The notes beneath the pieces were generated by a model. The model was not told the origin of the DNA. It worked only from the letters and a program-made list of their open reading frames with translations, and made no database searches. Shown here in pieces: positions 5,746-31,147 of a DNA stretch of 32,000 bases (position 1 is the stretch's first letter; the number at the start of each line of letters is the position of its first letter). The stretch is from an uncultured Alphaproteobacteria bacterium (GTDB lineage Bacteria > Pseudomonadota > Alphaproteobacteria > Rhizobiales > Beijerinckiaceae): positions 210,962-242,961 of the forward strand of contig CAVZAB010000025.1 in assembly GCA_963773155.1 (NCBI GenBank), given 5' to 3'. The position numbers and the translations under genes were made by a program.

Positions 5746-5749
5746 CGCT

Positions 5750-8469: not shown

Positions 8470-9493
8470 ATGCCAGCCTATCCGTTCTCCGCCATAGTTG
8501 CGCAAGAGACGATGAAGCTGGCGCTATTGATTGCTGCCGTTGACCCCTCCGTTGGTGGCGTATTGGTCTTCGGGGACCGCGGTACCGGCAAATCGACGGC
8601 GGTGCGCGCCTTGGCGGCTTTGCTTCCCAAAATGCGGGTCGTGAATAATTGTGCCTATAGTTGCGATCCTGGCAAACCTGCCGGCCTGTGCGGCGCGTGC
8701 GGTCCGGAGCGCAGAAAAAAGGATTTACCGAGCCATCTCGCACCCATTCCCGTCGTCGACCTGCCGCTGGGTGCGACCGAGGACCGGGTGATTGGCGCAT
8801 TGGATCTCGAGCTGGCGCTGGCCAAGGGCGAGAAGGCCTTTGAACCCGGCCTTCTCGCGCGCGCCCACCGAGGCTTTCTTTATATTGACGAGGTTAATCT
8901 TCTGGAGGATCACCTCGTTGATTTGCTGCTCGATGTCGCAGCCTCGGGCGAGAACGTTGTCGAACGGGAGGGTCTCAGTATTCGACACCCCGCGCGATTT
9001 GTCCTGGTTGGCAGCGGCAATCCAGAAGAGGGAGAATTGCGTCCGCAGCTGCTCGACCGATTTGGATTGGCGGTGGATGTCAAGACTTCCGGATAGCCTG
9101 GATGTCCGGGTTGAGGTCGTCAGTCGGCGTGACGCATATGACCGCGACCCGGCGGCTTTTTTGGCCAAATGGGACGGCAAGGATCGTAGTTTGCGGCGAC
9201 GCATCTCAGCCGCTCGGCAAAGGCTGGCCGCGGTCGATGTGCCTTTGCAGACGCTTCAGGATGCAACGAGACTGTGCATGGCGCTTGGGACGGACGGCCT
9301 TCGTGGTGAATTGACGTTGGTTCGCACGGCGCGCGCGCTAGCGGCCCTTGACGGGGACGAGACGGTCGAAGCGACGCATTTGCGGCGAATTGCTATACCG
9401 GCACTGTCGCATCGCTTGCGACGCAATCCATTGGATGATTCGTCGTCTGTCACGCGGGTTGAGCGCGCGCTTAGGGAAGTCCTCGGCCCATGA
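8470..9493 (+). pseudogene. bchI: Mg-chelatase ATPase subunit I, interrupted by a +1 frameshift near 9087-9088
   Basis: [20 protein letters not shown]...GDRGTGKST (Walker A)...[10 protein letters not shown] (Walker B)...[11 protein letters not shown], then a stop at 9094. The next frame continues [20 protein letters not shown]...GLRGELTLVRTARALAALDG...RRNPLD. Deleting one T of GACTTC (9084-9089) gives a continuous 340-aa BchI. Confidence 0.9.
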
Positions 9494-11298
9494 TGCCGCC
9501 AGAAGAAGCACGGCAACAATGGGCGGGCGATGCGACTTTGGCAGCCAAGCTTTTCGCCGTTGATCCGGTCGCAACCGGGATTGCGCTCAGGGCCGATGCC
9601 GGGCCGGTTCGCGATCTCTGGCTGTCGCAGTTGCGTCTCCTGGTCGGCTCAACTCCAATTCGACGGCTGCCGCTCAATATCAGCGACGATCGCTTGCTTG
9701 GCGGTGTTGATTTGACGGCAACTTTGCACGCTGGTCGGCTGGTCGCAGAGCGTGGCTTGCTTGCCGAGGCCGATGGCGGGATTGTTATCATGGCGATGGC
9801 GGAACGCGTGGCGCCGATGGCGGTCGCGCGGATCACCCGCATGCAAGACACGCGAAGCGTTGCTGTTGAGCGAGCCGGCCTTGGTCTCGTGCTACCCGCT
9901 CGGATCGGATTAATTGCCCTTGACGAGGGAATTGCCGCCGATGAGCGTCCGCCCGCCTCGCTTATGGATCGCCTGGCATTTCATATTGATCTAACTCAAG
10001 TCGCATTGGCGGATCTCGGCGAGCCTGGCTGCCGCCAGGAGATCGAAGCCGCGACAGACAGGCTGAGGACGCTAACCGCCGAGGCTGGCGCCGTCAGCGC
10101 ATTGTGTCGTGCCGCGATGAGCCTTGGCATAGCTTCGGTTCGCGCCCCGCTTTTTGCCTTGCAGGTCGCGCGTATTGCGGCGGCGCTGGCTCGCCGCTCA
10201 CGATTGGAAGCGCCAGATCTTGCGATCGCCGCGCGGCTCGTTTTGGCGCCGCGCGCGACGCGAGATCCCAGACAACAAACCGAGGAAGATGCCGGTCAAG
10301 CGCCCGAACAGGCCCAAAGTGAAGGAGAAGGTTCGGACATAGAGGGCGAGGCGGCTGACCAAAACCGTCAAGCGGATCGCGCTTGCGCAGCGCTTGCTGA
10401 TCTTGTCGTACAGGCCGCGGCCTCGGCACTGCCGCTTGGCCTGCTGAAGCAATGCGCGGGCGAGGGCATCCGGCATGCGAGAATGGCCAATGCCGGGCGG
10501 GCCGGTGCGTCGATGCGTTCGGCTCAGCGCGGGCGACCGATTGGGACAAGGAGCGGCCAACTCCGACAAGGACGGTTGAATATTGTGGAAACGCTACGTG
10601 CTGCAGCGCCGTGGCAGGCCCTGCGGCGACGCGAAGTGCAAACCCAAAACAACGGAACGAATATCGCTAGCGAAGGCCAGGGCCGCCTTCTGGTTCGAAC
10701 TGACGATTTTAGGTTGATCCGCTATGAGCAGCGCACGCAGACAACAACCATTTTTGCGGTTGACGCCTCCGGTTCCTCGGCTTTGCATCGTCTCGCGGAA
10801 GCTAAGGGCGCCGTTGAGCTGCTTTTGAATGATTGTTATGTCCGGCGGGATCATGTTGCGGTGCTCGCCTTTCGCGGCCAAGGTAGCGATTTGATTCTAC
10901 CGCCGACGCGCTCGTTGGTGCGGGCCAAGCGAGGCTTGGCCGGTCTGCCGGCAGGCGGTGCAACGCCGCTTGCCAGCGGTATAGCGGGCGCCACAGCGAT
11001 GGCGGAGAATATTCGTCGGCACGGGCACACGCCGATCATTGTGATTTTGACCGACGGACGGGCCAATATAGCGCGCGACGGAACTATGGGGCGGCCGCAG
11101 GCAATAGAAGATGCCCTTAGTGCTGCCCGCAATTTGAGGCAATCGGGCTGCACAACGCTGCTGATCGACACTTCGCCGCGGCCACAGGCTCTTGCCGAAC
11201 GTGTGGCGCGCGAAATGGGGGCCCGCTACCTGCCGCTTCCCTATGCCGATGCAACAAAATTATCGGAAGCGGTTCGGTTGGTTTCGGCTCCGGGTTGA
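9490..11298 (+). CDS. bchD: Mg-chelatase subunit D
   Basis: ATGA overlap with the bchI stop. It has an N-terminal AAA-like half, an acidic linker (EEDAGQAPEQAQSEGEGSDIEGEAAD) and a C-terminal vWA domain with MIDAS DASGS (FAVDASGSSAL). Confidence 0.9.
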   Translation: MMPPEEARQQWAGDATLAAKLFAVDPVATGIALRADAGPVRDLWLSQLRLLVGSTPIRRLPLNISDDRLLGGVDLTATLHAGRLVAERGLLAEADGGIVIMAMAERVAPMAVARITRMQDTRSVAVERAGLGLVLPARIGLIALDEGIAADERPPASLMDRLAFHIDLTQVALADLGEPGCRQEIEAATDRLRTLTAEAGAVSALCRAAMSLGIASVRAPLFALQVARIAAALARRSRLEAPDLAIAARLVLAPRATRDPRQQTEEDAGQAPEQAQSEGEGSDIEGEAADQNRQADRACAALADLVVQAAASALPLGLLKQCAGEGIRHARMANAGRAGASMRSAQRGRPIGTRSGQLRQGRLNIVETLRAAAPWQALRRREVQTQNNGTNIASEGQGRLLVRTDDFRLIRYEQRTQTTTIFAVDASGSSALHRLAEAKGAVELLLNDCYVRRDHVAVLAFRGQGSDLILPPTRSLVRAKRGLAGLPAGGATPLASGIAGATAMAENIRRHGHTPIIVILTDGRANIARDGTMGRPQAIEDALSAARNLRQSGCTTLLIDTSPRPQALAERVAREMGARYLPLPYADATKLSEAVRLVSAPG

Positions 11299-11313
11299 AT
11301 TTAGGATCTTCGG

Positions 11314-12201
11314 ATGATTGATGCCGATAGACCGGATTGGGCGCACGATGGTCGCGATTGGCCGCATCGACAGGCCAGTCAATTCGTTCGCGCCGGCGGC
11401 GTCCGGTGGCACGTGCAACGATTTGGGCAAGGGCCCGCCGCCCTTCTGGTCCATGGGACGGGTGCGTCGAGCCATTCTTGGTGCCGCCTCGCGGAATTGC
11501 TTGCCCAGCGTTTTACCCTTGTGATCCCGGATCTGCCCGACCATGGCTTCAGTGAAGCACCGGCCCATTACCGCCTGTCGTTGCCAGCGATGTCGGACGG
11601 TCTGCAAAAGCTTTTGAATGTTCTTGAAGTCAGTCCGGTGCTCGCGGTCGGGCATTCGGCCGGGGCAGCCGTATTGGCATCTTCCTGCCTTAAAGGGGCG
11701 ATTAAGCCTCGACTTCTGATAAGCGTCAACGGCGCCTGGTTGCCGTTTAAGGGGATCGCCGGCCAAATTTTTCCGTCGATTGCCAAGCTGCTTTACCTCA
11801 ATCCCTTTACTTCGCGCCTCTTTGCCTGGAGCGTCGATCGTTCAACGGTGCTGCGGCTGGTCGGGGAGACCGGATCGAGGATCGATGGGCAAGGTCTCGA
11901 ACTATACGAAAGATTGCTGCGGCGACCCGGGCATGTTGCGGGTGCCTTGGGCATGATGGCAAATTGGGATCTTGAGCCCCTGGTTCGACAGCTGGCTCAA
12001 CTTGAATTGCCAGTGATACTGCTTGCCGGAAGCAAAGACCGGTCGATACCTCCACAGGAGTCGCGGCGGGTTGCCGCCATGCTGCCGAACGCACGGGTGG
12101 AAATCCTGGAGGGCCTTGGACATCTTGCCCACGAAGAGCGTCCGAACGAGATCGCGGCCCTGGTCCTAAAACTTGCCGCCGAAGCGGGAATTATCGAATG
12201 A
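11314..12201 (+). CDS. bchO: Alpha/beta-hydrolase BchO (Mg-chelatase accessory protein)
   Basis: Canonical position after bchD. Alpha/beta-hydrolase motifs LLVHGTGASSHSW and nucleophile elbow GHSAG, with a C-terminal GHLAHEE. Confidence 0.8.
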   Translation: MIDADRPDWAHDGRDWPHRQASQFVRAGGVRWHVQRFGQGPAALLVHGTGASSHSWCRLAELLAQRFTLVIPDLPDHGFSEAPAHYRLSLPAMSDGLQKLLNVLEVSPVLAVGHSAGAAVLASSCLKGAIKPRLLISVNGAWLPFKGIAGQIFPSIAKLLYLNPFTSRLFAWSVDRSTVLRLVGETGSRIDGQGLELYERLLRRPGHVAGALGMMANWDLEPLVRQLAQLELPVILLAGSKDRSIPPQESRRVAAMLPNARVEILEGLGHLAHEERPNEIAALVLKLAAEAGIIE

Positions 12202-12245
12202 ATCAAGCCAGACCGGACTTGCCGTCATATCATTTACACTGCTAG

Positions 12246-12263
12246 TGTCCAACAATGCTGACA
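12246..12263. promoter_or_regulatory. PpsR/CrtJ-type palindrome candidate overlapping the crtI start codon
   Basis: TGTCCAACAATGCTGACA follows TGTC-N10-GACA. The crtI ATG (12255) lies inside the spacer. It sits in the 53-nt bchO-crtI gap. Confidence 0.35.
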
Positions 12264-13781
12264 CGTGTCACATATGCCCCGGCGGGCCCATTTGAACAAC
12301 GATCGTCGGCGGTCGTTATTGGGAGCGGGTTCGGCGGTCTTGCTGCAGCTATTCGGCTCGGTGCACGCGGTTATGCCGTAACGGTGCTTGAAAAGCTCGA
12401 TGCACCCGGCGGGCGTGCTTATGTCCACAAGCAGGACGGTTTCACGTTCGACGCTGGACCAACAATTGTAACAGCGCCCTTTCTGTTTGAGGAGCTTTGG
12501 CGCCTGTGTGGACGCAAATTCTCCGACGATGTCGAATTGCGGCCAATGGAACCGTTCTACCGGATCAGATTTCACGACGGCTCGCATTTTGACTACAGCG
12601 GCGATCGCGATGCGATGCGTTCGGAGATCATGAGAGTCTCGCCAGTCGACCTGCCCGGTTACGAAGCCTATATGCGCGAAAGCGCAGCCATTTATCGGAT
12701 CGGTTTCGAACAGCTTGGGCACGTATCGTTTGGTTCGCCGCTCGATATGCTGCGCATTGTTCCAGACCTTGTTCGGCGCCGAGCCTACCGCAGCGTCTTT
12801 GATCAGGTTGCCAAGCATATTTCGGACGAGAAGTTGCAGGCGGTGTTTAGTTTCCATCCGCTTCTCATCGGGGGTAATCCGTTCCGAGCGAGTGCCATCT
12901 ATTGTCTTATTGCCCATCTCGAGCAGAAATTTGGGGTTCATTTCGCAATGGGCGGAACGGGGCGCCTGATTGAGGGTATGGTGCGATTGATCGAGGACCA
13001 GGGCGGCATTGTCAGATACCGGGCGGAAGTTGAGAGAATCATAGTCAAGGATGGCGTCGCCCGCGGGGTTGAGCTTAGCGGGGGGGAGAGGATTCGCGCC
13101 GATATCGTCGTTTCAAATGCCGATTCCGCCTGGACCTATCGCTATCTTGTGCCCGCCGAATTGCGGCGGCGCTGGACTAACAGGAAACTCGATCGTTCGC
13201 GCTATTCGATGGGCCTGTTCGTCTGGTATTTTGGGACAAGCAAGATCTATCCCCGGGTTAAGCATCACACGATCATCTTGGGACGCCGATACCGCGAACT
13301 TATCGAGGACATTTTTGAACGTAAGATCCTCGCTTCGGATTTTTCTCTCTATCTGCACCGTCCGACCGCGAGCGATCCGTCTTTGGCGCCGGCGGGCTGC
13401 GACGCATTTTATGTCTTGTCTCCAGTTCCTAATCTCGGCGGTTCGATCGACTGGGTAGAGCGCTCAGACGAGTATCGCCAGGCGATTGCCCGGCAATTGG
13501 ATGATACCGAACTCCCAGGGTTTTTGCCGCACGTTGTTACATCGCGCGTCACAACGCCGCTCGACTTTCAAGATCGGCTTCTGTCTTACCGTGGCGCGGC
13601 TTTTGGCCTTGAACCGCTTTTGACCCAAAGCGCTTGGTTTAGACCCAACAATCGCAGCGAGGACGTCAAGCATCTCTATCTGGTCGGCGCCGGGACGCAT
13701 CCTGGGGCTGGACTGCCGGGGGTGCTGTCATCGGCGCGCGTCCTTGATATTGTGGTGCCAGATGCCGCCCTCTTCGCCTAA
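12255..13781 (+). CDS. crtI: Phytoene desaturase
   Basis: N-terminal FAD fold AVVIGSGFGGLAAAIRLGARGYAVTVLEK. The C-terminal motif is LYLVGAGTHPGAGLPGVLSSA. This is the only in-frame start after the upstream stop at 12243. Confidence 0.9.
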   Translation: MLTRVTYAPAGPFEQRSSAVVIGSGFGGLAAAIRLGARGYAVTVLEKLDAPGGRAYVHKQDGFTFDAGPTIVTAPFLFEELWRLCGRKFSDDVELRPMEPFYRIRFHDGSHFDYSGDRDAMRSEIMRVSPVDLPGYEAYMRESAAIYRIGFEQLGHVSFGSPLDMLRIVPDLVRRRAYRSVFDQVAKHISDEKLQAVFSFHPLLIGGNPFRASAIYCLIAHLEQKFGVHFAMGGTGRLIEGMVRLIEDQGGIVRYRAEVERIIVKDGVARGVELSGGERIRADIVVSNADSAWTYRYLVPAELRRRWTNRKLDRSRYSMGLFVWYFGTSKIYPRVKHHTIILGRRYRELIEDIFERKILASDFSLYLHRPTASDPSLAPAGCDAFYVLSPVPNLGGSIDWVERSDEYRQAIARQLDDTELPGFLPHVVTSRVTTPLDFQDRLLSYRGAAFGLEPLLTQSAWFRPNNRSEDVKHLYLVGAGTHPGAGLPGVLSSARVLDIVVPDAALFA

Positions 13782-14817: not shown

Positions 14818-14883
14818 TGTCGATCGGCGCACCGCCAATAGTCTCGGCAAGATTTGCCGGCCGGGTGGGCGAATTTGGCGGGC

Positions 14884-15171: not shown

Positions 15172-15211
15172 ATTCGGCTCCATTATCGCATTTGGATCGC
15201 GCCATCGAGGC

Positions 15212-15701
15212 CTAGAAGGACGGGTTGAGTTGTACGACCGACCAGTTTAGCAAGGCGGCAAAAGAAACCCAGACGAGGTAGGCATAGAGCGAGGCGTGAT
15301 GCGTTTTTGGAGTAGCCCGCCAGAACGACGATTAGGACAAGAATTGAAAGCCACAGGAAAATGACCTCGAACAATGCCCAATCGGGCCGGCGCAGCCGAA
15401 AGAAAAGCAAGCTCCATAAGACATTAAGAAAACCGTTCAGGGCAAAAAGCGCGACCAGCCACTCGCGCGCGGAACGATTGGGAGCCTGGCGCCAGGCGGT
15501 AGCGGCGCTGAGGGCGCTCAAGGCGAAAATTATCGTCCAGGCCGGCCCGAAGAGCCAGTCCGGGGGCTTCCAGGCGGGGGTTTCCAATTCCTGATACCAA
15601 GGACCAAGATCGGTAATCGAACCTCCCAGGACTGCGACAAACAACGCGACGAAAAGGGCAACGAAAACCGGCAGCGCCCGCGACGCTGGCCTTGCATTCA
15701 T
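15212..15701 (-). pseudogene. tspO: Tryptophan-rich sensory protein TspO (CrtK), interrupted by a +1 frameshift near 15324-15330
   Basis: N-terminal part: ...WYQELETPAWKPPDWLFGPAWTIIFALSA...LNGFLNVLWSLLFFRLRRPDWAL... The ORF-track C-terminus (LAGYSKNASRLALCLPRLG...) is not TspO-like. The +1 frame reads FWRATPKTHHASLYAYLVWVSFAALLNWSVVQLNPSF* (stop at 15212-15214), which is the conserved TspO C-terminus. The corrected length is 162 aa. ATGA overlap with the bchP stop. Confidence 0.8.
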
Positions 15702-16900
15702 GGTGAGGCAAGTCCGAGAAGCTGGGCAAGATCCTTGAAAAAGATACGCATGTGCGCAACGGGTTTCCGTCGCACAAGTTCCTTGTTCATATAGGCTTCC
15801 CAGGTTAGCTTTTGCACGTCCTTGTCTTGACAGATGCTGACGAAACGTTCGCGCCGTCGGTCATTTTTGTACCAGAAATATTGCATGATTCCCAAAATCA
15901 GGAAGACCCGGCCATGGGCCCGGATGAATTTTTTGCGCGCCAGTTTCAATGCCTGGGGATTGCCGGTCGCAAGACAGGCATCGATGGCTTCGGCGGCCAA
16001 TTGGCCGCCCAGCATGGCATAATAAATCCCTTCGCCCGAGGCCGGCGCCACAATGCCAGCAGCGTCACCGGCCAGAACCACATTGCGGCCATTGTCCCAG
16101 CGCCGCATTGGCCGTAGCGGAATGGGCGCGCCCTCGCGGCGCAGCGTCTCCGATCCGTCAAGGCCAATTTTCAGCCGCAGGTCGCGGATCGCGCCGCGCA
16201 GCGAAAAGCCCTTGACGGCGCTGCCAGTGCCAATGCTCAGCGTATCGCCATGCGGAAAGACCCAGGCATAGAAATCGGGTGATAACGAGCCGCGATAATA
16301 GACATCGCAACGACGACCATCGAATTCCGCAGAACCGCTGCGCGGGGTGCGAACAATCTCGTGATAGGCAAAAACATACGGGATCTTGTCGGCTCCCTTC
16401 ACTGTTTGTCTAGCTACCGCCGATTTGGCGCCGTCAGCGCCGATGAGCAGGCGCGCATAGGCCCGCATCGGCGCACCATCGGTCTTCTGTCGGTAATGGA
16501 CGACCACTCCCTCGCCGCATTCGCTGATTTGCTCGAAATTCCCTTCGCATCGTACAGCGCCAGCCTCCGCCGCGCGATTTCGCAGCCATTCGTCAAAGAC
16601 GTCGCGGTCGACCATTCCAACGAAGCCGTCCTCGATTGGCATCTCGACCCGCCGCGATTGCGGGGAGATCACCCGGGCCGACGCAATTCGCGCCACAATC
16701 AACGCATCTGGAATAGCAAAATCACGAATGAGCCGAGGCGGTATTGCGCCGCCACATGGTTTGATGCGACCGGCTCTGTCGAGCAGGAGAACCGTGCGGC
16801 CGCGACGGGCGAGCGCGGTCGCGGCAGTCGCACCGGCAGGACCCCCGCCAACGACGATTGCGTCAAAGACGGTCGATTGGACGTCGGGCGACGGCGTCAT
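15698..16900 (-). CDS. bchP: Geranylgeranyl diphosphate/bacteriochlorophyll reductase
   Basis: FDAIVVGGGPAGATAATALARRGRTVLLLDRAGRIKPCGGAIP...VVLAGDAAGIVAPASGEGIYYAM. ATGA overlap with the upstream MFS gene. Confidence 0.9.
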   Translation of the reverse strand: MTPSPDVQSTVFDAIVVGGGPAGATAATALARRGRTVLLLDRAGRIKPCGGAIPPRLIRDFAIPDALIVARIASARVISPQSRRVEMPIEDGFVGMVDRDVFDEWLRNRAAEAGAVRCEGNFEQISECGEGVVVHYRQKTDGAPMRAYARLLIGADGAKSAVARQTVKGADKIPYVFAYHEIVRTPRSGSAEFDGRRCDVYYRGSLSPDFYAWVFPHGDTLSIGTGSAVKGFSLRGAIRDLRLKIGLDGSETLRREGAPIPLRPMRRWDNGRNVVLAGDAAGIVAPASGEGIYYAMLGGQLAAEAIDACLATGNPQALKLARKKFIRAHGRVFLILGIMQYFWYKNDRRRERFVSICQDKDVQKLTWEAYMNKELVRRKPVAHMRIFFKDLAQLLGLASP

Positions 16901-18277
16901 GCTTCAACCTCAATTCGCCCGCTCACGAGCTGGGCATCTCTGAGCAAGATACTTTCGCTGGTCCGCGACGGCGCCGCTCCCAACCGAAGCGCCAAAGCTC
17001 CGCCGATCAAGAAAAGGCCAGCTTGGCCGACAAAGACGACGCCATAGGCAAGCGCCGGTGGTTGAATCAATTGCCGGCTGATGTCGGCTGCTAACGTTCC
17101 GGTAAAGCCGCCAAGTCCAAAGGCCAAGGCCTGCGCGCCACCCCAAAGTCCTATTCTGAGGCCAGCACGTGCAGCACTATTGGTGCCTGCAAGTCCCATC
17201 ATCGCCCAAATTGCCGAGACTGCGAAGGTGCCGTTCGCAAGGCCGAGTGCAAATACGGACCTTTGAAGCGACCATGGCAGCTCGACTACGCCACCCAGCG
17301 CAATAACCAAGAGCATTGCCGCCGATGCGACGCATCCAAGAAAAGTCCACAGCCGCATCGACCCGAACCAGCGTTGGGCGAAGAGACTTGCGGTCACGGC
17401 GACTAGGAGCATTCCAACGAGAACACCGCCGTGCTGAGCCGAGGAAAGCTTGGTCGAATTCACCCGGCGTAAAATGAAAGACAATGCCGGCAAACGGCTC
17501 GAGGAGCAATTCCTGAGCGCTATAGGCCAACATGGACACAAAGACGAATATCGCAAATCGTCGGGATTGTGGCTCGTTCCAGACCTGACCGAGCGCTTCT
17601 CGAAAAGGCACTTGGCCGGAAGACGCTGGGCTGGAGGATATTTGGTTCGGTCGGGCGGGTAGCTTTCGAGCGAGCGAAGTCGACTCAATCTTCCAAACGG
17701 CAACAACCGTGACAAACAAGGAAAGACTGGCGACGATTGCGGTGATTGCAATCAAGCGGGGGAAGGAAAAGGGGTCGAGAAATTGTCCGGCCAGGTAAGC
17801 GGTTATCGCAATGCCGGCGATCATCATGATCCAGGTGATTGTCGCCGCGGCGGGCCGCCGGTCTGGCGCGACGAGTCCGGCCAGCAGAGTGAGAAGCGAG
17901 GTACCTGCCGCACCCACGCCGCCCCCAACCAGGATAAAGGCGATTATGGCCAGCCCCAGGCCGGCCATGGGATGGCTGGCGATCAGTGCCGCGGCAACGG
18001 CCGCGCTCAATCCCCCGCAAGCGAGAATGGCCATGCCTCCGATGATCCAGATTGTTCGACGGCCGCCGACATCGGACCCGTAGCCCCAACGAGGCCGCAG
18101 AACTTGCACGCCATAATGAAGGGCGACTAGACCGCCGGGAATGAAAGCAGGCAGCGCTAGTTCGACGACGAGGACTCGATTGACGACCGATGTCATCAAG
18201 ACAACGATAGCGCCGAGCGCAGTTTGCACCAGACCCAGCCGGACTATCCCGAGCCAACCAAGTTGGGCCGGTATCAT
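16897..18277 (-). pseudogene. PucC/LhaA-family (BCD) MFS protein at the Bch2/ORF428 position, interrupted by a +1 frameshift at 17456-17461
   Basis: MIPAQLGWLGIVRLGLVQTALGAIVVLMTSVVNRVLVVELALPA...LLLEPFAGIVFHFTPGE, then the frame is lost. The other frame continues STKLSSAQHGGVLVGMLL...GLWGGAQALAFGLGG... Deleting one base of GAATTC (17456-17461) gives 459 aa. The ORF-track start at 18316 is possible, but 18277 matches family N-termini better. Confidence 0.85.
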
Positions 18278-18322
18278 TGCGCGCCCCGAATTCAGCGCTG
18301 GGGGGGAAAAATCCATAATTTA

Positions 18323-18351
18323 AGAGTAAACTTGACACTCTATGTTGTCAA
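18323..18351 (-). promoter_or_regulatory. Candidate sigma70-type promoter for the MFS-bchP-tspO-orf95 operon
   Basis: On the minus strand: TTGACA (18346-18351), 17 nt, then TACTCT (18323-18328). The -35 is the 3' half of the PpsR palindrome. Confidence 0.4.
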
Positions 18352-18363
18352 TTAAGTTTGACA
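18346..18363. promoter_or_regulatory. PpsR/CrtJ operator (TGT-N12-ACA) between ppsR and the PucC-like gene
   Basis: TGTCAATTAAGTTTGACA has perfect 6-bp arms TGTCAA/TTGACA. An additional TTGACA arm lies at 18332-18337. Confidence 0.7.
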
Positions 18364-18368
18364 GACGA

Positions 18369-19841
18369 TCAGTTCCCACCGTCGCTTTCGCCGTCAAGGT
18401 CGCCAAGATTATAGCGATGCATTTTCGAATACAAACTCTGCCGGCTCAATCCGAGCATTTCGGCGGCAGAGGCACGATTGTCGCGCGTCAGTTGGAGCGC
18501 TGCCTCGATACACAGCCGTTCAATCATATCGGTCGCTTCGCGGATCAGGTCCTTAAGCGAAACCCGACCGACCAGTTCGGTAAATTGTGCGACCCAGGCG
18601 GGCGGCGGCTCACGCCCGGATGCATCGGCGGGCTGTGTGCGCCAAGCTCGCGTACGAAGAGTCAGGCCGACACAGGGCTGCGCACCGCCTGGTACTGCAA
18701 CTGCGGTGATTTCTACCTCTTCACTTGACCCATATTCACCGCGTACCATGCTTGCAAAATGGCGAACCGTGCCGTGTTCCCGCAAATTGGCCATGAGAAC
18801 ATCGACATCGACACCCACCCGTCCAACCCAACGCTCCAACAATTCGCCGCGCGCTTGTTCGACGCTCGCCAATTGTGCGAGATCGAGAAAGGCCGCATTG
18901 GCAGTCAATATCCGCCGATTGGGATCTGTGACCACAAAGCCTTCAGGCAGGCTGTCGATGACCGTTAAGAGCGCGGCGTTGGCTTTGGGCAGCGGTTGAT
19001 TTTCAACATTATGGGGAAACTGCGTCAACCGGACCAAGAAATAAGTCGCGCTCTCCTGGCGAAACAGCGAGGCTGAAAACCAAAACTGGTCTTTTTCACC
19101 GGCGAGTTTTGCCTGCACGTCGTCGGCCCGTCCGGTTGCCCGCACGCTGCCGAGTAAAGTTTGAACGGCCTGAAGGCTTTCCGGTTCGAAAAGGTCGAGA
19201 AAGGACAGTCCGTTTAAGCGTTTGGCGTCCCGATTCAGGATTCGGACGGCAACCGGATTGGCGTCGATCACCTTCTGGGTCGAAGCATCAACGATTAGGA
19301 CGGCTTCCGACGCCAATTGAAAGAGCAGACGATAGCGGGTCTCGGCGGCCCGTATTCGAGCATATTCACGCTCCATTGCCTGCTGGATCTCGATCAGGCG
19401 CTGCTGTAGGGCAGCCATCGCGCTCAGATCGCGGCCGACCGCCACTAGCCGTCCGTTCTTGCCGGCCTGAACAACCGAATATCTTATGGCTATGTCGCTG
19501 CCGCGCTTGGAGGGATGATTGACTTCGCGCCAGCGCGAGGTTTTGGCCTTGACGTCCTTAGCCGTCACCTCCTCGACCATTTCGCGGATCTTTTTGCGAC
19601 TTTCGGCGGTAACTGTGTCGATCCATGGCCGGCCCAACCAGGCCGCATAACCCTCCTTGGCCAGCAATTCACTGCTCAGAGAAATGTCTTCGATGATGCC
19701 ACGCCTATCGAGGACCAAGGCAATATCGGCTGCAGCCTCGATCAATTTTGCCGCATCCTCCGCCCCCAGATCACTGAAGGAGGTTCGCGGTGCAGTGAAA
19801 GCCTTTGCTTCATAGGGGGGCACGATTTGTAGAAGCGACAT
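18369..19841 (-). CDS. ppsR: Photosynthesis gene repressor PpsR/CrtJ (PAS domains plus C-terminal Fis-type HTH)
   Basis: The C-terminus NRASAAEMLGLSRQSLYSKMHRYNL is a Fis-type HTH. It has PAS-like repeats and the conserved position next to ppaA. ATG 19841 (MSLLQIVPP...) is preferred over GTG 19886, which overlaps ppaA. Confidence 0.9.
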   Translation of the reverse strand: MSLLQIVPPYEAKAFTAPRTSFSDLGAEDAAKLIEAAADIALVLDRRGIIEDISLSSELLAKEGYAAWLGRPWIDTVTAESRKKIREMVEEVTAKDVKAKTSRWREVNHPSKRGSDIAIRYSVVQAGKNGRLVAVGRDLSAMAALQQRLIEIQQAMEREYARIRAAETRYRLLFQLASEAVLIVDASTQKVIDANPVAVRILNRDAKRLNGLSFLDLFEPESLQAVQTLLGSVRATGRADDVQAKLAGEKDQFWFSASLFRQESATYFLVRLTQFPHNVENQPLPKANAALLTVIDSLPEGFVVTDPNRRILTANAAFLDLAQLASVEQARGELLERWVGRVGVDVDVLMANLREHGTVRHFASMVRGEYGSSEEVEITAVAVPGGAQPCVGLTLRTRAWRTQPADASGREPPPAWVAQFTELVGRVSLKDLIREATDMIERLCIEAALQLTRDNRASAAEMLGLSRQSLYSKMHRYNLGDLDGESDGGN

Positions 19842-19857
19842 AGATATCCATTTCTCT

Positions 19858-20757
19858 CTACGGACCGTGACGTTGCCTGGCGGCACCTTGTTGGGCCAGA
19901 ATTATTTGCTGGCCCAACACGACCGCGACTTGCCCGTCGGCGGCGGTAGCATCAGCGCCAATGAGGTTAACCAGCTCCGGGCGTTCCACAAACAATGGTC
20001 CGCCAACCAGGACGGCAATCGATTGATTTTGTGAGACCCGGCGAATGGCGCGAATCGCAGATGCCAGTGTCTCCAACATAGTTTCGCTGGCCAACGACAA
20101 ACCGACGATGGCAAACCATTCACGCTGGGCGAGTTCGACAACATTCCCGTCGCGATGGGCCGCGCCGAAAACTTCCCAGCCGGCGCTTCGAAAAAATTTC
20201 TCCACCATCTGAATACCGAATGTGTGCTGTTCACCAGGTGTTGGCATGAGCAAGATGCGCCGCCTCTCGTCAGGTTCCGCAATCTCCCCGGCGGCGCCGG
20301 GATCTAGCTCGTTGAGCAGCATGTGCAATCGGGACAATCCGACCGTTACGTCAAGAAAATTGCATAGGTCATTGTCCCACATTTCGCCCAAATGGCGCGC
20401 TGCCGGCGCCAGTAGGTCGAGCAGGAGAGCGTCAGTCGGTACGCCGCTTTCGCGCATTGCCTGAACGTAGCGGGTCGCCGCCGACAGATCCCGACCGACG
20501 ACCATTTGTGCGAGTTCAAGCACCTGGGCCTCGCCTGGCATCCTGACGTTTGGCGATGCGGCACTGGCGACCACCCGATAGGTCAACATTAAACGCGGTA
20601 GAATTTCCCCTTCAATAATATCCATCAAGCGCAATTGCCAATCGCTCTCGCGCTGGCCTGACCCGTTCCAAGGCTCCGCAACTGGCCTCCGTTGCGAATG
20701 TCTTTCCGCATTCAGCCAGCTAGTGTCTGGCTCGACGCATCGCCTGAGCTCCGCCAT
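19858..20757 (-). CDS. ppaA: Cobalamin-binding-domain antirepressor PpaA/AerR
   Basis: B12-binding-like module ILLMPTPGEQHTFGIQMVEKFFRSAGWEV...IVGLSLA...VLVGG. The N-terminal helical region contains DVTVGLSRLHMLL. It lies immediately upstream of ppsR. A strong SD (GGGGAGG) precedes ATG 20757. Confidence 0.8.
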   Translation of the reverse strand: MAELRRCVEPDTSWLNAERHSQRRPVAEPWNGSGQRESDWQLRLMDIIEGEILPRLMLTYRVVASAASPNVRMPGEAQVLELAQMVVGRDLSAATRYVQAMRESGVPTDALLLDLLAPAARHLGEMWDNDLCNFLDVTVGLSRLHMLLNELDPGAAGEIAEPDERRRILLMPTPGEQHTFGIQMVEKFFRSAGWEVFGAAHRDGNVVELAQREWFAIVGLSLASETMLETLASAIRAIRRVSQNQSIAVLVGGPLFVERPELVNLIGADATAADGQVAVVLGQQIILAQQGAARQRHGP

Positions 20758-20999: not shown

Positions 21000-22801
<1,802 letters not shown>

Positions 22802-22805
22802 GGCG

Positions 22806-24366
22806 ATGCAGCTGACGGTTTGGACCTATGAGGGACCACCACATGTCGGCGCGATTCGCATCGCAACCGCCATGGAAGGTCTCCACTATGTCTTGCATGC
22901 GCCGCAAGGCGATACCTATGCCGATTTGCTCTTCACAATGATTGAACGGCGCTCCAAGCGCCCGCCGGTCACCTATACAACCTTTCAGGCCCGCGATCTC
23001 GGCAGTGATACGGCAGAACTCTTCAAAACCGCGGTCAAGGAGGCCTATGAGCGATTTAGACCGCAAGCCCTGCTTGTTGGTGCGTCCTGTACTGCCGAGC
23101 TTATCCAGGACGATCCGGGCGGATTGGCGAAGGCCATCAATCTGCCCATACCGGTCATTCCGCTCGAATTGCCGGCCTACCAGCGCAAAGAAAATTGGGG
23201 CGCGTCGGAAACCTTCTATCGACTGGTGCGGACCCTTGCGCGTCCTGGGCAGACCAAGTCATCGCGCGCCGCGGGCGAACCGATAAGCTGCAACCTTCTC
23301 GGCCCAACCGCCTTGGGCTTTCGTCACCGCGATGATGTTCATGAAGTAACGGCATTGCTTGCAAAGCTCGGCATTGCGGTCAATGTCGTGGCGCCACTAG
23401 GGGCATCGCCAGCCGACCTTGGCCGACTGAGCGAAGCGGATTTCAACGTCGTTCTTTATCCCGAAATTGCCAGTCAGGCAGCGCAATGGCTGCAGAAAAC
23501 CTTTGGCCAGCCGAGTGTCAAGACGGTGCCGATTGGCATGGGCGCCACGCGCGAATTCATTAGCGAGCTCGCCAGTTTGGCGGGAGTTCGATCCGACGCC
23601 TGCGCTGACCTGCGCTGCGGCGCGATTGCCATGGTATTCGCGCTCTGTCGATTCGACCTACCTCACGGGCAAGCGGGTCTTCATTTTCGGCGACGCAACG
23701 CATGTCGTGGCGGCCGCCAGAGTTGCCGCCAAGGAATTGGGATTCGTCGTGGTTGGTCTCGGCAGCTATAGCCGTGAATTTGCGCGAGAGGTTAGGGAGG
23801 CGGCGAAGACTTACGGCATCGAGGCGCTTATCACCGACGATTATTTGGAGGTCGAAGCGCTAGTGAGCCAATTGCAGCCGGAGATTATCCTCGGCACCCA
23901 AATGGAACGTCACATCGCCAAACGGCTGGGGATCCCCTGTGCGGTCATTTCGGCGCCAATCCATGTCCAAGACTTTCCCGCTCGCTACTCGCCGCAAATG
24001 GGATTTGAAGGCGCCAATGTCCTCTTCGATACCTGGGTTCATCCATTGATGATGGGGCTTGAAGAGCATCTCTTGACGATGTTTCGGGATGACCACGAAT
24101 TTCATGACGAGGCGCCACCCTCGCATATCGGCCATGCCGTCCGGACGCCAAGGATACCCGAGGTTCCGGCCAATTCGTCACCGGTGCCACCCGCCAATGA
24201 AACTGCGGTCGCGTGGGCCGTCGAAGCCGAGAAGGAACTTAAGAAAATTCCCTTCTTCGTTCGCGGCAAGGCGCGCCGCAATACAGAGCGCTTCGCTTAT
24301 GATCAGGGCCTATCGATGATAACTGTGGACACGTTATACGATGCCAAAGCTCACTTCGGTCGCTGA
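22806..24366 (+). pseudogene. bchB: Light-independent protochlorophyllide reductase subunit B, interrupted by a +1 frameshift at 23584-23589
   Basis: [48 protein letters not shown]...[16 protein letters not shown], then the frame is lost. The next frame continues [38 protein letters not shown]...[18 protein letters not shown]. Deleting one T of GAGTTC restores 519 aa. Confidence 0.9.
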
Positions 24367-27300
24367 ACAAATTCCGATGCGCATTGTCATCGTGACAATG
24401 GATACGCTCGCCAGTGGTCTTGAGCGGGCGATCCGCAAACTAGAGAAGGATATCCCGGGCTTGCGCGTTAGCCTACATGCAGCCTGTGAGTGGAATACTT
24501 CTACTGAGGCGGTGCAGCGGTGCCGTAAAGATCTCGCCGAAGCCAACATCATTTTTGCTGGGATGTTGTTTCTAGAGGACCATTTCCAACCTATTCTTGA
24601 TACGCTGAGGGCGCGGCGCGACAATTGTGACGCGATTGTTTGTGCCCTGTCGGCGGCAGAGGTTGTGCGCCTGACGCGAATGGGTCGCTTTAGCATGGAT
24701 GGGGCGCAGGGCGGGGCGCTTGCTTTCCTCAAACGTCTGCGCGGTGAACGCAATAAGTCCGCCAGCCCAGGAGCGCAGCAGTTGAAAATGCTGCGCCGTG
24801 TGCCGCAGATCCTGCGTTTTATCCCGGGAGCAGCCCAAGATGTGCGGGCTTATTTTCTGTCTCTGCAATATTGGATCGGGGGCTCCGAAGAAAACATCAC
24901 CAATTTGCTGCGCATGCTTATCGACCGGTTCGCCGATGGTCCTCGCCGTCCTCTACGCGGAACGCTCAAGGTCGCGGCGCCAATCCAATACCCCGACGTC
25001 GGCGTCTACCACCCGCGCTTAAAAACTCGCATCGCGGATCGAGCCGATCAACTGCCGGCCGCGGGCAAAAACGGGACCGTAGGAAATCCTAATGCTACGA
25101 TCCTACTTACTGTCGGGAAATACCGCCCATTATGATGGGGTAATCGCAGCCCTTGAGAACCGCGGCCTGAACGTCATCCCGGCTTTTGCCAGCGGTCTCA
25201 ATTCTCGCCCGGCGGTCCAGCGCTATTTCATGACGGGCAACAGTGCCAAGGTCGACGCCGTCGTCTCACTCAGCGGCTTTTCCCTGGTAGGCGGTCCCGC
25301 CTATAATGACGCACGAGCGGCCGAGGAATTGCTCGCCAAGCTCGACGTGCCGTATATTTCTGCAGTCCCCGTTGAATTGCAGACCTTGGAGCAATGGGAA
25401 GGGTCCGAGCGCGGCCTCTTACCCGTTAAATCGACGATCATGGTGGCGATCCCTGAACTGGATGGGGCGACGGGTACCACGGTATTCGGCGGCCGTTCCA
25501 GTGAAGACGATACGAAAACCTCGCGCGACATGCGAGTTCATAATGAGCGTGCCAATAGGCTGGCCGAACGGGTTCTCAAGCTGGTTAAGCTTCGCCGTTC
25601 GGCCCGCGCGGATCGCAAGGTGGCGATTGTTCTATTTAATTTCCCACCCAATGCCGGCAATACCGGAACCGCAGCCTATTTGTCGGTCTTTGCCTCACTC
25701 CATCGCACAATGCAGGAATTGGCCAATTCCGGCTACCAGGTGGATGTGCCAGAATCGGTGGACGCATTGCGCGATCGTATTATCGGCGGCAACAGCATGC
25801 GTCTTGGCTGCCAAGCCAATGTCGTCGCGCGGATCGCCGTTGACGATCACATTCGTCGCGAGCGCTACCTGGGCGATATTGAAGCGCAATGGGGGCCAGC
25901 GCCGGGCCGCCAGCAGAGTGACGGTTCGTCAATCCTTGTGCTCGGTGAGCGCTTCGGAAACATCTTGGTCGGGATTCAGCCGGCCTTCGGTTATGAGGGC
26001 GATCCGATGCGCCTCTTGTTCGAGCGCGGTTTTGCCCCAACCCATGCCTTTTCGGCATTCTACCGCTATCTGCGTGAGGATTTCGGGGCCCACGCGGTCC
26101 TGCATTTTGGAACCCATGGTGCTCTGGAATTCATGCCGGGCAAACAAGTCGGCCTGTGTGAGGACTGCTGGCCGGAGCGGCTGATCGCGGATCTGCCGAA
26201 TTTCTATCTTTACGCCGCCAATAACCCGTCTGAGGGGGCAATTGCGAAACGTCGGTCGGCGGCAACACTGATCTCCTATTTGACGCCGCCGATTGCGCAT
26301 GCTGGCCTCTATCGGGGCCTGCTTGATCTCAAAGCCTCAGTGGAGAGCTGGCGCAAGCTGGCGCCGGATGCATGCGAGCGAAGCAGGTTGACGCAATTGA
26401 TCCAGTCTCAGGCTGCAGCCGTTGATCTTGCTGCGCTCGAACCTAGCTGGAGTGATGAGGAGGCCGCGGTCCGGATCGGGAGGATTGGCGAGCAAATTCT
26501 TGAGCTGGAATATACGTTGATTCCGCATGGGCTGCATGTCGTTGGTGAGCCGCTGTCGAGGGCAGAGCGAGTCGACATGCTCGTCGCTATAGCAGAATCC
26601 TCACACGCGACGCGGCTCGATCGGTTGGCGGCTGAGTTGCTGGTGGAAGGTGCGTCCGTGGACGCCGCCATGGCCGCCGCCAATTTGCCGCCCACCGCGG
26701 CGAATACTGCGATGTTGACAAGCCTTGCGCTGACCGATCGCATGCTGGGCGAGGATAGCGAAGTCAAGGCGCTGATTGCCGCTTTGGATGGACGCTTTAT
26801 CCGACCGGCGCCGGGCGGCGACGTCCTTCGAACCCCTGCCATATTGCCAACCGGTCGCAATTTACATGGTTTCGACCCTTTCCGGATCCCAAGTGCCTTC
26901 GCCATGAAGGAGGGCGAATTACAGGCTCAGCGTCTCATAGAGCGGCATATGTTGGACGGTCAACCATTTCCGGAATCGATTGCCATGGTTCTATGGGCGA
27001 CCGACAATCTAAAGAGCGAAGGGGGGCCGTTGGCGCAAGCCCTCGCCCTCATGGGTGCGCGGCCGCGCTTCAACTCGTTCGGCCGCTTGGCCGGTGCGAC
27101 TTTAATTCCTCTCGAGGAACTGGGGCGGCCGCGGATCGATGTGGTCATCACATTGTCAGGCATATTCCGCGACCTTATGCCATTACAGATCAAATTGCAT
27201 GCCGAGGCGGCCTACCTGGCAGCCTGCGCCGACGAGCCCGTTGACCGCAATTTTGTGCACAAACATGCGCTCGCCTACCAGCAACAGCATGGCTGCGATA

Positions 27301-28055
27301 TGGAAACCGCTTCGCTGCGTGTCTTCGGCAATGCCGAGGGAACCTATGGGTCCAACGTCAATCACCTGGTCGAAAACAGCCGTTGGGAAGACGAAGATGA
27401 ACTCGCCGAGACCTATACGCGGCGCAAGTGCTTTGCCTATGGCCGCTCGGGACGCCCGGTGCAGCAGGCGGCATTGCTGAATAGCGTTCTTGAGGACGTG
27501 CAACTGGCCTATCAGAATTTGGATTCCGTCGAGCTGGGCGTTACCACCATCAATCATTATTTCGATACGCTTGGCGGAATTAGCCGGGCTGTCAGGCGGG
27601 CCAAAGGTGGCGTTGAAGCGCCAGTATATATTGGCGATCAGACCCGCAGTGAGGGAACGGTGCGGACGCTCGCAGAACAAGTGTCGATTGAGGCCCGGAC
27701 CCGCATGCTAAACCCAAAATGGTATGAAGGGATGTTGAGGCATGGCTATGAGGGCGTGCGGCAAATTGAAGAGCACGTTACCAACACAATGGGTTGGTCG
27801 GCGACAACCGGGCAGGTTTCACCTTGGGTTTATAAGCAACTGACTGAGATCTTTGTTCTCGATGCTGAGATGCGTGAGCGTATGGCCGACCTCAATCCAA
27901 CTGCGTCGGCGAAAGTCGCAAGCCGGTTGCTTGAGGCGCATGAGCGGAAATATTGGACGCCGGATAAGGACATGCTTGAGGCGCTTCAGGAGGCCGGGGA
28001 AGACCTTGAGGATCGCCTGGAAGGCGTAGGTATCGCCTCCGCCGCGGCCGCCTAA
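24341..28055 (+). pseudogene. bchH: Mg-chelatase large subunit H, interrupted by a +1 frameshift at 25083-25088
   Basis: The first piece ends ...LPAAGKNGTVG. The next frame continues ILMLRSYLLSGNTAHYDGVIAALE...HFGTHGALEFMPGKQ...GRPRIDVVITLSGIFRD... Deleting one A of GAAATC gives a 1237-aa CobN/BchH-type protein. An alternative start is ATG 24377 (MRIVIVTMD). Confidence 0.9.
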
Positions 28056-29000
<945 letters not shown>

Positions 29001-29001
<1 letters not shown>

Positions 29002-29705
29002 TGCCGACCCTGACCTATAGCGAGCGACGCCGGCAGATCGAAACCTATTTCGATCGTACGGCCGTAGACGCTTGGGCGAGACTGACTTCTGACGCACCGG
29101 TCGGGCGTATTCGCGCGACCGTTCGTGAAGGCAGAACGCTTATGCGTGAGACCCTTCTTGATTGGTTGCCGCGAGATTTGCGCGGACAGCGGCTGCTGGA
29201 TGCTGGTTGTGGGACCGGTGCATTGGCGGTGGAAGCGGCGCGTCGAGGCGCCGATGTCGTCGCCGTCGATCTATCTCCGACCCTGATCGGGCTGGCGCGC
29301 GAGCGGGCGTCGAAGAGCGAGGGTTGCGGGAAGCTGGAATTTTGCGCTGGTGATATGCTCGATCCCGGACTGGGGTCCTTTGATCGCGTTGTCGCCATGG
29401 ACTCGCTGATCCATTATCCGGCGGTCGAAGTGGTGCGGATTCTGGCGGGTTTCGCCGAGCGGACCCGTGAATCGATTCTCTTCACTTTTGCGCCGCGAAC
29501 GCCGGCGCTCAGTGTGATGCATGCGGTGGGTCGGCTGTTTCCGCGACAGGATCGCGCACCGGCGATTGAGCCGGTCGGCGAGATGGCAATACTTGACCTT
29601 CTGAACCGGCAACGCGGCCTGAACAGCTGGCTTCCTTCGCGCACTCAGCGGGTGGCGCGCGGCTTTTATACATCACAGGCAATGGAATTGGGAAAAGATG
29701 CGTAG
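29001..29705 (+). CDS. bchM: Mg-protoporphyrin IX methyltransferase
   Basis: YFDRTAVDAWARLTSDAPV..IRATVREGR..MR..LLDWLP.DL.G.RLLDAGCGTGALAVEAARRGADVVAVDLS is a SAM-methyltransferase motif in the canonical position. TGATG overlap with bchL. Confidence 0.9.
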
Positions 29706-31147
29706 CTTGAGGCAAGGTGTGACGCGAGGCGTTATGCGCGGCTGGATGGCGTTGGGGCCGGGTTTCTTGCCGTTCGCGGATGTGGCGACGGAGGAACTAC
29801 CGCTGTTGCGGCTTTTGCGGCTGTCCCTTTTCCAAGTTTCGGTTGGAATGGCGGCCGTGCTGCTGATCGGTACTTTGAATCGGGTCATGATTGTGGAGCT
29901 GGGCGTTAGCGCGTCGCTGGTCGCGGTGATGGTATCCGTGCCACTCTTGCTGGCGCCGCTACGAACACTTGTCGGGTTTCGTTCGGATCATCATCGTTCG
30001 GTTTTGGGCTGGCGCCGTGTTCCCTATTTGTGGTTCGGCACTTTGTTACAGTTCGGCGGCTTGGCGATCATGCCTTTCGCCCTTATTCTATTGTCGGGCG
30101 ATAGCAATGCTCCGATGATTGTCGGCCAGCTTGCTGCAGCGCTGGCCTTTTTATTGGTTGGCGCCGGACTACACACGACCCAAACCGTTGGCTTGGCGCT
30201 GGCGACCGATCTTGCGCCGGCCCATGCCCAGACTAAAGTGGTCGTATTGTTGAGTGTTATGCTGCTGGTGGGCATGGTCGTTAGTGCCCTTTTCTTTGGT
30301 GCGGCGCTCGCCAATTTTAGTGAATTGCGCTTGATTCAGGTCGTTCAGGGATCGGCCCTGGCTACGATTGTCTTGAACGGCATTGCGCTTTGGAAGCAGG
30401 AGGCACGCAATCCCTCCCTCACGACAGGGGATCAACCTCTGCCTTCTTTCTCACAGGCGTGGCGGGATTTGAATCATGGAGCGGGGTCGAAATCGGCGGT
30501 TGATAGCGGTTGGCCTTGGCACGGCTGCTTTCAGCATGGAGGATATTCTACTTGAGCCCTACGGTGGGCAGATCTTGCATTTGAGCGTCGGAACAACGAC
30601 CAAGCTCACCGCGCTTCTGGCGGTAGGTGGCCTTACGGGGTTTGTGATCTCGGCTCGCTGGCTTAGTCGAAATGCGGATCCTTATCGTCTGGCCGCGTTG
30701 GGTGTCTTGTTCGGGCTAGCGGCGTTCTCGGCCATTATTTTTGCCGCCCCACTCGGCTCGGCCTGGCTATTTGCCGCAGGAACGGCGTTGATCGGCCTTG
30801 GCGGCGGGTTGTTTGCGGTTGGTACGCTGACTGCGACAATGCGGCTTGCTGCTGGCAATCAGACAGGTCTGGCGCTTGGCGCGTGGGGTGCGGCGCAAGC
30901 TTCCGCGGCCGGTTTGGCGATTGCGCTGGGCGGCATCATCCGCGATGGCGTGAGCGAACTGGCGGCGCGCGGGCTGCTCGGGCCGGCGCTTAACGATGAA
31001 GTCACCGGCTATAGCGTGGTTTATCATCTTGAAATCTTATTGCTGTTTGCGACGCTTGTTGCCATCGGCCCACTCGTTCGTCATGCGAACGCAGGCCTCG
31101 GCAGATCAAGGCCGGGATTGGGACTCACTGAAAACCCGGCACGATAG
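29698..31147 (+). pseudogene. lhaA: LH1 assembly MFS protein LhaA (PucC family), interrupted by a +1 frameshift within 30473-30497 (best fit GAAATC 30489-30494)
   Basis: LPFADVATEELPLLRLLRLSLFQVSVGMAAVLLIGTLNRVMIVELGV...SQAWRDLNHGAG, then the frame is lost. The next frame continues NRRLIAVGLGTAAFSMEDILLEPYGGQILHLSVGTTTKLT... The corrected length is 482 aa. It lies in the canonical position between bchM and puhA. Confidence 0.85.

Follow-up and report, generated by a model that had tools for sequence, protein, structure and literature searches.

Seven genes in a photosynthesis gene cluster (bchI, tspO, a PucC-like MFS gene, bchB, bchH, bchL and lhaA) each contain a +1 frameshift due to a single surplus base, and in six of the seven the insertion doubles the A or the T of a GANTC motif, producing GA[A]NTC or GAN[T]TC. 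The cluster makes up the window analysed here, a 32,000 nt stretch of a 309,412 bp contig in the public NCBI/ENA records. We conclude that the seven frameshifts are very probably consensus errors of a long-read native-DNA assembly and are absent from the DNA of the organism. This conclusion, which agrees with the basecalling or consensus error preferred in an earlier note on the same DNA, is based on the six motif hits, the restriction of the lesions to +1 insertions, the ORFs restored when the surplus bases are removed, the lack of decay in tests of selection, the intact state of relatives, the partial penetrance of the effect and published errors at GANTC.

When homologue ORFs were used as tblastn queries, exactly seven frameshifts were found in the window, every one of them +1 (Table 1). 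Removal of all seven surplus bases generates seven full-length ORFs that are free of internal stop codons. No deletions, nonsense codons or further frame-breaking indels were found in the approximately 30 kb that could be aligned to relatives, where the remaining indels are intergenic or amount to a net multiple of 3. None of the 5-8 nt homopolymers in the window is affected. The truncated products are present in only one public NCBI/ENA record. A candidate eighth frameshift, in a cNMP-binding gene at 5209-5855, was rejected, as the second ORF contains no domain; the counterpart of this gene in the relative encodes a stand-alone cNMP-binding protein of 159 aa.

Table 1. Interrupted genes and their insertion sites, in window coordinates
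Feature	Position	Strand	ORFs or surplus base	Deletion-scan optimum
bchI	8422-9493	+	two overlapping ORFs, 8422-9096 and 8792-9493	
bchI site GACTTC	9084-9089		surplus T at 9087/9088; GACTC without it	9087-9088
tspO	15212-15701	-	C-terminal 24 codons out of frame	
tspO site	15290-15291		surplus G at 15291, GAGC[G]AGG; outside, and not near, any GANTC or GANNTC	15290-15291, flat plateau (32 TspO homologues)
PucC-like MFS gene	16897-18316	-	ORFs 17177-18316 and 16897-17751	
MFS site GAATTC	17456-17461		surplus A at 17457/17458; original GATTC	17457-17458
bchB	22806-24366	+	ORFs 22806-23771 and 23467-24366	
bchB site GAGTTC	23584-23589		surplus T at 23587/23588; GAGTC without it	23587-23589
bchH	24341-28055	+	ORFs 24341-25135 and 25092-28055	
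bchH site GAAATC	25083-25088		surplus A in run 25084-25086; GAATC without it	25084-25086
bchL	28092-29001	+	ORFs 28092-28820 and 28675-29001	
bchL site GAACTC	28717-28722		surplus A at 28718/28719; GACTC without it	28718-28719
lhaA (PucC family)	29698-31147	+	ORFs 29698-30555 and 30476-31147	
lhaA site GAAATC	30489-30494		surplus A in run 30490-30492; GAATC without it	protein scan flat, 30471-30493

Protein profiles are split accordingly. The two bchI ORFs divide the NCBIfam BchI-ChlI profile into positions 1-204 and 207-336, and different ORFs likewise hold positions 1-250 and 253-1244 of NCBIfam BchH, 2-176 and 172-265 of NCBIfam BchL, and, for lhaA, 1-204 and 210-399 of Pfam PUCC. The NCBIfam BchB profile is broken near position ~270, Pfam TspO_MBR covers only positions 3-126 of 145 in the window tspO, and 39 homologues of the MFS gene gave paired HSPs in frames -2 then -3. 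In the relative, bchI (340 aa), the MFS gene (485 aa, with PUCC and MFS_1 domains), bchB (516 aa), bchH (1237 aa), bchL (301 aa) and lhaA (482 aa) are all intact, and TspO is 162 aa. The genes are in a single frame in relatives, and the shift site is absent from them, which argues against programmed frameshifts, that is, ribosomal +1/-1 shifting or transcriptional slippage used for expression. That a short motif recurs where the frame shifts is the one feature that such recoding would account for. However, neither GAANTC nor GANTTC is slippery, there is no slippery motif at the sites, and seven unrelated genes would need to be recoded in one lineage only; we regard the probability of this explanation as negligible.

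The inserted bases were located with a deletion scan, in which up to 40 homologues per gene were used to find the base whose removal best restores homology, and by DNA alignment to metagenome relatives that share 88-91% DNA identity and gene order with the window. The scan optimum coincides with the doubled A or T in bchI, the MFS gene, bchB, bchH and bchL. It was flat in lhaA and tspO, both of which were resolved by DNA alignment. Alignment to intact relatives pinned each of the seven insertions to a single base. The relatives with intact genes comprise five metagenome contigs and one Logan contig and represent three lineages, and those from the five metagenome contigs lack all seven insertions. 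A metagenome pattern search at the MFS site returned two additional intact relatives, and one at the bchL site returned no match.

At the bchI site, relative L085 has AAGACA-CCGG and the window has AAGACTTCCGG. L085, L086 and L087 alike have GGTCG-ATTCACC, which includes GATTC, at the MFS site, and L082, L083 and L084 have TTCG-ACTT at the bchL site. The bchB site is marked by a 1 nt gap in alignments with L082, L083 and L085, while DNA alignment of lhaA to L082 and L083 puts the gap at GGGGTCG-AAGC. At the bchH site, the GTVGILMLRSY of the relative is reproduced only by deleting an A. The tspO site in L085 reads ATAGAGC-AGGCGTG, and the tspO frame once corrected is ...AYLVWVSFAALLNWSVVQLNPSF. 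A contig scan with BchN found relatives with at most 78% amino acid identity among the matches listed; these are unsuitable for DNA alignment and served as protein homologues and outgroups. A search of plasmids for a close relative yielded nothing beyond a Sulfitobacter bchB segment with 75% identity. The coordinates of that match are relative to the query and correspond to the start of the window's own bchB, and there is nothing unusual about it.

All six hexamers listed in the earlier note are present at the positions it gave, and removal of the doubled base yields GANTC from each, as it had claimed. The duplicated base is position 2 of GANTC, four times on the top strand and twice on the bottom strand. 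Deletion of only 1.6% of window positions would create a GANTC. The probability that six or more of the seven insertions would be of this type by chance is 1e-10 with single-base placement, 1e-8 with 3 nt placement and 4e-6 with 10 nt placement. The observation in the earlier note is confirmed, on firmer ground than the note itself could provide. Its expectation of about one GANNTC per 256 positions is close to, but lower than, the actual frequency, as 155 are found (1 per 206 nt), with 64 in the relevant GAANTC/GANTTC subset. The intact GAATC that was cited as an example at 828-832 is in fact at 829-833.

Genuine decay leaves mixed lesions, a deletion bias and raised dN/dS. Interruption of seven of the approximately 22 cluster genes, giving seven apparent pseudogenes packed in 24 kb, is conceivable after loss of phototrophy, and decaying photosynthesis clusters resemble the window in having interruptions in a number of bch, puh and related genes. 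However, those clusters have the mixed lesions, deletion bias and raised dN/dS, and the window has none of them; its lesion spectrum is insertion-only. If these were ordinary pseudogenes, overlap with GANNTC would have to be a coincidence, and with a motif overlap of P = 1e-8 to 1e-10, we consider this extremely improbable. Permutation and binomial tests reject coincidence, and that reading is therefore effectively refuted.

Purifying selection is undiminished in the frameshifted genes. The dN/dS values were 0.095 for the parts upstream of the frameshifts, 0.077 for those downstream and 0.115 in intact genes, and in a relative-rate test the frameshifted genes had accumulated 45 polarised amino acid changes on the window branch versus 40 on the branch of the relative. 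Neither test supports decay. Nor does either detect the relaxed selection that would go with real insertions in an organism that no longer needs phototrophy, made by a mutational process that is aimed at (methylated) GANTC and adds an A at the modified adenine. Such a process would explain the very strong motif association, and the deposited record does contain the frameshifts. Also in its favour, all but one of the six affected GANTC sites are specific to the lineage of the window. All six are in the photosynthesis cluster, which would be dispensable, and none of the 20 GANTC sites in the first 8.4 kb, among flanking non-photosynthesis genes, is affected, but this contrast is not significant (P=0.13). 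Seven inactivating events would also have had to occur without a nonsense mutation, a deletion or an excess of amino acid changes, every relative is intact, slippage cannot turn a single A into AA, and the tspO insertion does not fit. We know of no insertion process targeted to GANTC, and consider real insertions of this kind very unlikely. It is highly unlikely that CcrM-methylated GANTC sites, preferably those that are TCGANTC and recently arisen, are hotspots of templated or repair-associated +1 adenine duplication, with the photosynthesis cluster just dispensable. A restriction cut followed by fill-in was rejected by reasoning only: with a HinfI-type cut (G^ANTC), the three bases ANT would be duplicated, and with a 1 nt overhang in the centre, the N, rather than the A or T.

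Only six of the 71 GANTC sites (8%) are affected. Four of the six are in the context TCGANTC, compared with 17/136 unaffected sites (p=0.0045, post hoc), and the two without TCGA are CGGAGTC and AGGAATC. Partial penetrance together with a context bias is the pattern expected of signal- or k-mer-dependent miscalls. Both the shared TCGANTC and the small proportion of sites affected could be accounted for by an artefact of sequence context that is independent of methylation, such as a basecaller or polisher bias at the k-mer TCGANTC. We consider this unlikely, as CGGAGTC and AGGAATC are affected and 17 TCGANTC are not, the duplicated base is the CcrM target adenine, on either strand, in all six cases, and methylation-aware models lower the published GANTC-linked errors (PMC12710330, PMC12392509). 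GANTC is found in the window at 0.61 of its expected frequency, but depletion is just as strong for the control motifs GTNAC, CTNAG and AGNCT and hence carries no information on CcrM. GANTC frequency shows a modest contrast between Alphaproteobacteria and Beta- or Gammaproteobacteria. The ccrM gene is absent from the 32 kb window.

CcrM and the methylation of GANTC are conserved in Alphaproteobacteria, and all named homologues of ispH in the window are from this class. Returning to consensus error as the preferred explanation, we infer that GANTC is methylated in the organism, that the underlying data are long reads and that the miscall arises by the following route. The source would be a novel alphaproteobacterium in which CcrM N6-methylates the GANTC adenine on both strands. 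At some of these sites, the altered signal would lead to one adenine being read as two, with affected top-strand reads giving GAANTC and affected bottom-strand reads GANTTC. Where miscalled reads outnumber correct reads, the surplus base would enter the consensus and break the frame. The platform was most likely nanopore, though a PacBio origin, with extra pulses at m6A, is conceivable. Some observations run counter to an artefact. The published errors at GANTC are mainly substitutions, which are not evident in the window, the confinement of the hits to the cluster (not significant) would also be expected if selection had removed real insertions elsewhere, and the tspO insertion, one of the seven, is unconnected with the motif. 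Most simply, the latter is an ordinary motif-independent insertion error in the same assembly.

Long-read indels typically arise where the length of a long homopolymer is misjudged, and most are deletions, whereas in the window a single base becomes two at a methylation motif and homopolymers are spared. Wick et al. 2019 reportedly found errors at Dam (GATC) and Dcm (CCWGG) motifs in nanopore basecalling and assembly, and Lohde et al. 2024 are said to have described methylation-motif nanopore errors of the Dam/Dcm type. If the window insertions are artefacts, they resemble these in that a modification missing from basecaller training leads to systematic, motif-specific consensus errors. However, the Dam/Dcm errors involve another motif and methyltransferase and are mostly substitutions or ambiguous purine/pyrimidine calls, and those in the window are insertions.

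Closer parallels in the motif itself come from agrobacteria, in which nanopore assembly errors concentrate at GANTC (PMC12710330), and from Brucella abortus and Brucella melitensis, in which nanopore errors are found at some occurrences of GANTC only (PMC12392509). The Agrobacterium and Brucella errors are like those in the window in their motif, their entry into the consensus, their partial occurrence and their location mostly in coding sequence. They differ in being mainly substitutions near the methylated base, while the window has one-base duplications of the putatively methylated A or complementary T. Comparison of GANTC gain and loss in the window (66/39) and the relative (67/39) revealed no excess of substitution-type errors at GANTC. 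The figures are balanced between the two, and the window therefore gives no sign of the substitutions that the published cases would lead one to expect. No description of an A-duplication or other insertion-type error at GANTC or m6A was found in the literature searched. Long-read indel errors that fragment genes into apparent pseudogenes have been described, for example with Kastor (PMC12007338). The indels described there are, like those in the window, single-base, break conserved genes, are detectable via intact homologues and can be corrected in silico.

The public record would thus contain at least seven false pseudogenes, from which annotation pipelines would label a phototroph as non-phototrophic. 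The error leaves a simple signature that can be searched for, a +1 shift of the frame within GA[A]NTC or GAN[T]TC, by which long-read genomes and MAGs of Alphaproteobacteria could be flagged and then repaired. We found no earlier description of this GANTC duplication signature, as substitutions predominate in the papers found. Insertions that were real would point to a mechanism of methylation-directed insertional mutagenesis that is unknown to date. Most likely, the biological import is slight, as the photosynthesis cluster of the organism is probably intact.

When 3,651 ORFs from 80 homologous loci among the matches listed were used as tblastn queries, one homologue spanned two adjacent frames at seven places. 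At all seven, the downstream frame was shifted as expected from one extra base in the window. An earlier note had placed six of these frameshifts at the A/T of a would-be GANTC, the CcrM-type methylation motif. The six GANNTC hexamers it named were all found at their positions, but the intact GAATC that it cited at 828-832 was one base off: 828-832 is CGAAT and GAATC sits at 829-833. A deletion scan, in which each base was removed in turn and the repaired protein scored against homologues, found the best-restoring base to be the doubled A or T within the hexamer in five genes, as the note had held, and gave a flat score plateau for lhaA and tspO. In DNA alignments to relatives, every frameshift was a single extra window base, which confirms the GANTC placement of six of the seven at single-base resolution. 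The extra G in tspO, a single case, neither extends a homopolymer nor lies near any GANTC. It is either an ordinary insertion error unrelated to GANTC or else a seventh lesion of unknown cause.

Frameshifting insertions and other features of the window. The extra base is bracketed; TCGANTC sites are in coordinates of the sequence with the seven extra bases deleted, all others in window coordinates.
Feature	Position	tblastn frame change	Deletion-scan optimum	Insertion	Placement from	Relative's sequence	TCGANTC site	Intact size in L082-L085 (aa)
bchI	9084-9089	~9088	9087-8	GACT[T]C	alignment to relatives	GACAC		340
tspO	15290-15291	~15292		GAGC[G]AGG	alignment to relatives			162
PucC-like MFS gene	17456-17461	~17458	17457-8	GA[A]TTC	three relative contigs (L085, L086, L087)	GATTC	17454	485
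bchB	23584-23589	~23596	23587-9	GAGT[T]C	alignment to relatives	GGGTC	23581	516
bchH	25083-25088	~25076	25084-6	GA[A]ATC	relative's peptide reproduced only by deleting an A	GAATT		1237
bchL	28717-28722	~28723	28718-9	GA[A]CTC	alignment to relatives	GACTT	28712	301
lhaA	30489-30494	~30480		GA[A]ATC	alignment to relatives	GAAGC	30483	482
Cyclic-nucleotide-binding gene trio	1180-5745
23-nt insertion	5253-5275
bchP/PucC-like gene to ppsR	16897-19886
MFS indel cluster	17607-17665
14-nt insertion	28066-28079

Searches with BchM and CrtI, together with a listing of cluster members, returned four JGI metagenome contigs (L082-L085) that have the gene order of the window and are 87.9-89.1% identical to it over positions 2295-32000. 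A pattern scan added L086, which is 91% identical and represents a third lineage, and L087. Relatives at ~89-91% DNA identity are found in JGI metagenomes 3300069122, 3300069203, 3300067036, Ga0302323 and Ga0209048, and in run ERR12143032. The seven genes frameshifted in the window are all intact in L082-L085, and the remaining indels between window and relatives are intergenic or a net multiple of three. One cluster of indels in the PucC-like MFS gene (-11, -19, -15, +1 and +5; net -39 nt, in frame) coincides with a stretch where the relative has tandem GGCTGGCAGAGGTTTG-like units, and thus looks like a variable repeat-encoded loop. Compared with the relatives, the window also has insertions of 23 nt at the junction of the ABC transporter and cNMP-binding genes and of 14 nt in the bchH-bchL spacer, which are probably natural length variation.

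The window (32 kb, 59% G+C) carries six non-photosynthesis genes 5' of the cluster, for a cNMP-gated K+ channel, an ABC transporter, a cNMP-binding protein, enoyl-CoA hydratase, cytochrome c (cycA) and IspH. The cluster comprises, in order, bchI-bchD-bchO-crtI-crtB, tspO, bchP, the PucC-like MFS gene, ppsR, a B12-binding ppaA-like gene, bchF-N-B-H-L-M, lhaA and puhA. Three genes with cyclic-nucleotide-binding domains (the K+ channel, the 933-aa ABC transporter and the stand-alone cNMP-binding protein) adjoin the cluster and are kept in the relative. In window and relatives alike, ppsR directly follows bchP and the PucC-like gene; bchG, expected between them in many photosynthesis clusters, is absent there.

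The intact IspH, CrtI and BchM each have an identical entry from one NCBI/ENA record with a 309,412-bp contig, and truncated BchB, BchH, TspO and MFS fragments are also recorded, from that contig only. The frameshifts therefore belong to the deposit and were not added to the window later. Outside its own species cluster, the nearest IspH homologue is 75% identical, and named homologues, at most 70% identical, are all from Alphaproteobacteria (e.g. Alsobacter, Parvularculaceae, Amorphus, Hyphococcus and Phreatobacter). Thus, the source is a novel alphaproteobacterial lineage.

Deletion creates a GANTC at only 1.6% of window positions. The probability of at least six of seven insertions falling at the motif is ~1e-10 with single-base placement, 1e-8 allowing 3 nt of uncertainty and 4e-6 allowing 10 nt, bearing out the claim that the overlap is very unlikely by chance. 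The deposited record does contain the pattern, which goes far beyond chance. After correction the window has 71 GANTC sites, of which 6 carry an insertion; the extra A is on the + strand at four of them and on the - strand at two. The first 8.4 kb, which lies outside the cluster, has 20 sites and no insertion at any of them, but with a chance P of 0.13 this contrast does not discriminate. In the 88-89% identical relative, the sequence at five of the six affected sites is something other than GANTC (P ~0.05); overall, 59% of window GANTC sites are common to both. Gain and loss are symmetric (66 sites in the window and 67 in the relative, 39 shared), so substitution-type damage at the motif is not evident.

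Affected sites were more often TCGANTC (4/6 versus 17/136 unaffected strand-sites; Fisher p=0.0045, post hoc). Either a k-mer-dependent miscall or an overlapping TCGA-type modification might account for the bias. A basecaller or polisher bias set by context only, independent of methylation, is improbable as the cause of the insertions.

It is well established that CcrM methylates the GANTC adenine on both strands in most Alphaproteobacteria (PMC12710330). In nanopore-only assemblies of agrobacteria, errors concentrate at methylated motifs, GANTC among them, and are reduced by methylation-aware basecalling (PMC12710330). In Brucella, nanopore errors likewise fall at GANTC and hit just part of the sites (PMC12392509). 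The published GANTC errors are mainly substitutions (PMC12710330, PMC12392509), whereas the GANTC lesions in the window are one-base duplications of A/T, and our literature search turned up no account of A duplication as an error signature at this motif. Judged from sequence, the cause is very probably a modification-dependent consensus error of a presumed long-read assembly. The putatively methylated adenine at some GANTC sites would have been called twice, on whichever strand dominated, and the frameshifts in bchI, the MFS gene, bchB, bchH, bchL and lhaA would be false.

With the seven bases deleted, seven full-length, uninterrupted ORFs result. In the corrected frame, the stretches upstream of the frameshifts have a dN/dS of 0.095 against the relative and those downstream 0.077, compared with 0.115 for the 16 intact genes. 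When amino-acid differences were polarised with as many as 12 outgroup homologues of each gene, 45 changes in the frameshifted genes fell on the window branch and 40 on the relative branch. Together with the low dN/dS, this leaves no trace of relaxed constraint. Bacterial DNA under neutral decay is deletion-biased; all seven lesions are insertions, with no deletions or nonsense codons among the window lesions relative to the relatives, and none of the 5-8 nt homopolymers in the window is affected. GANTC placement, restored ORFs and the lack of a decay signal strongly favour the artefact reading of the earlier note. A real GANTC-targeted insertion process, acting in a newly dispensable cluster, is contradicted by the absence of any decay signal and is very unlikely; if true, it would be novel.
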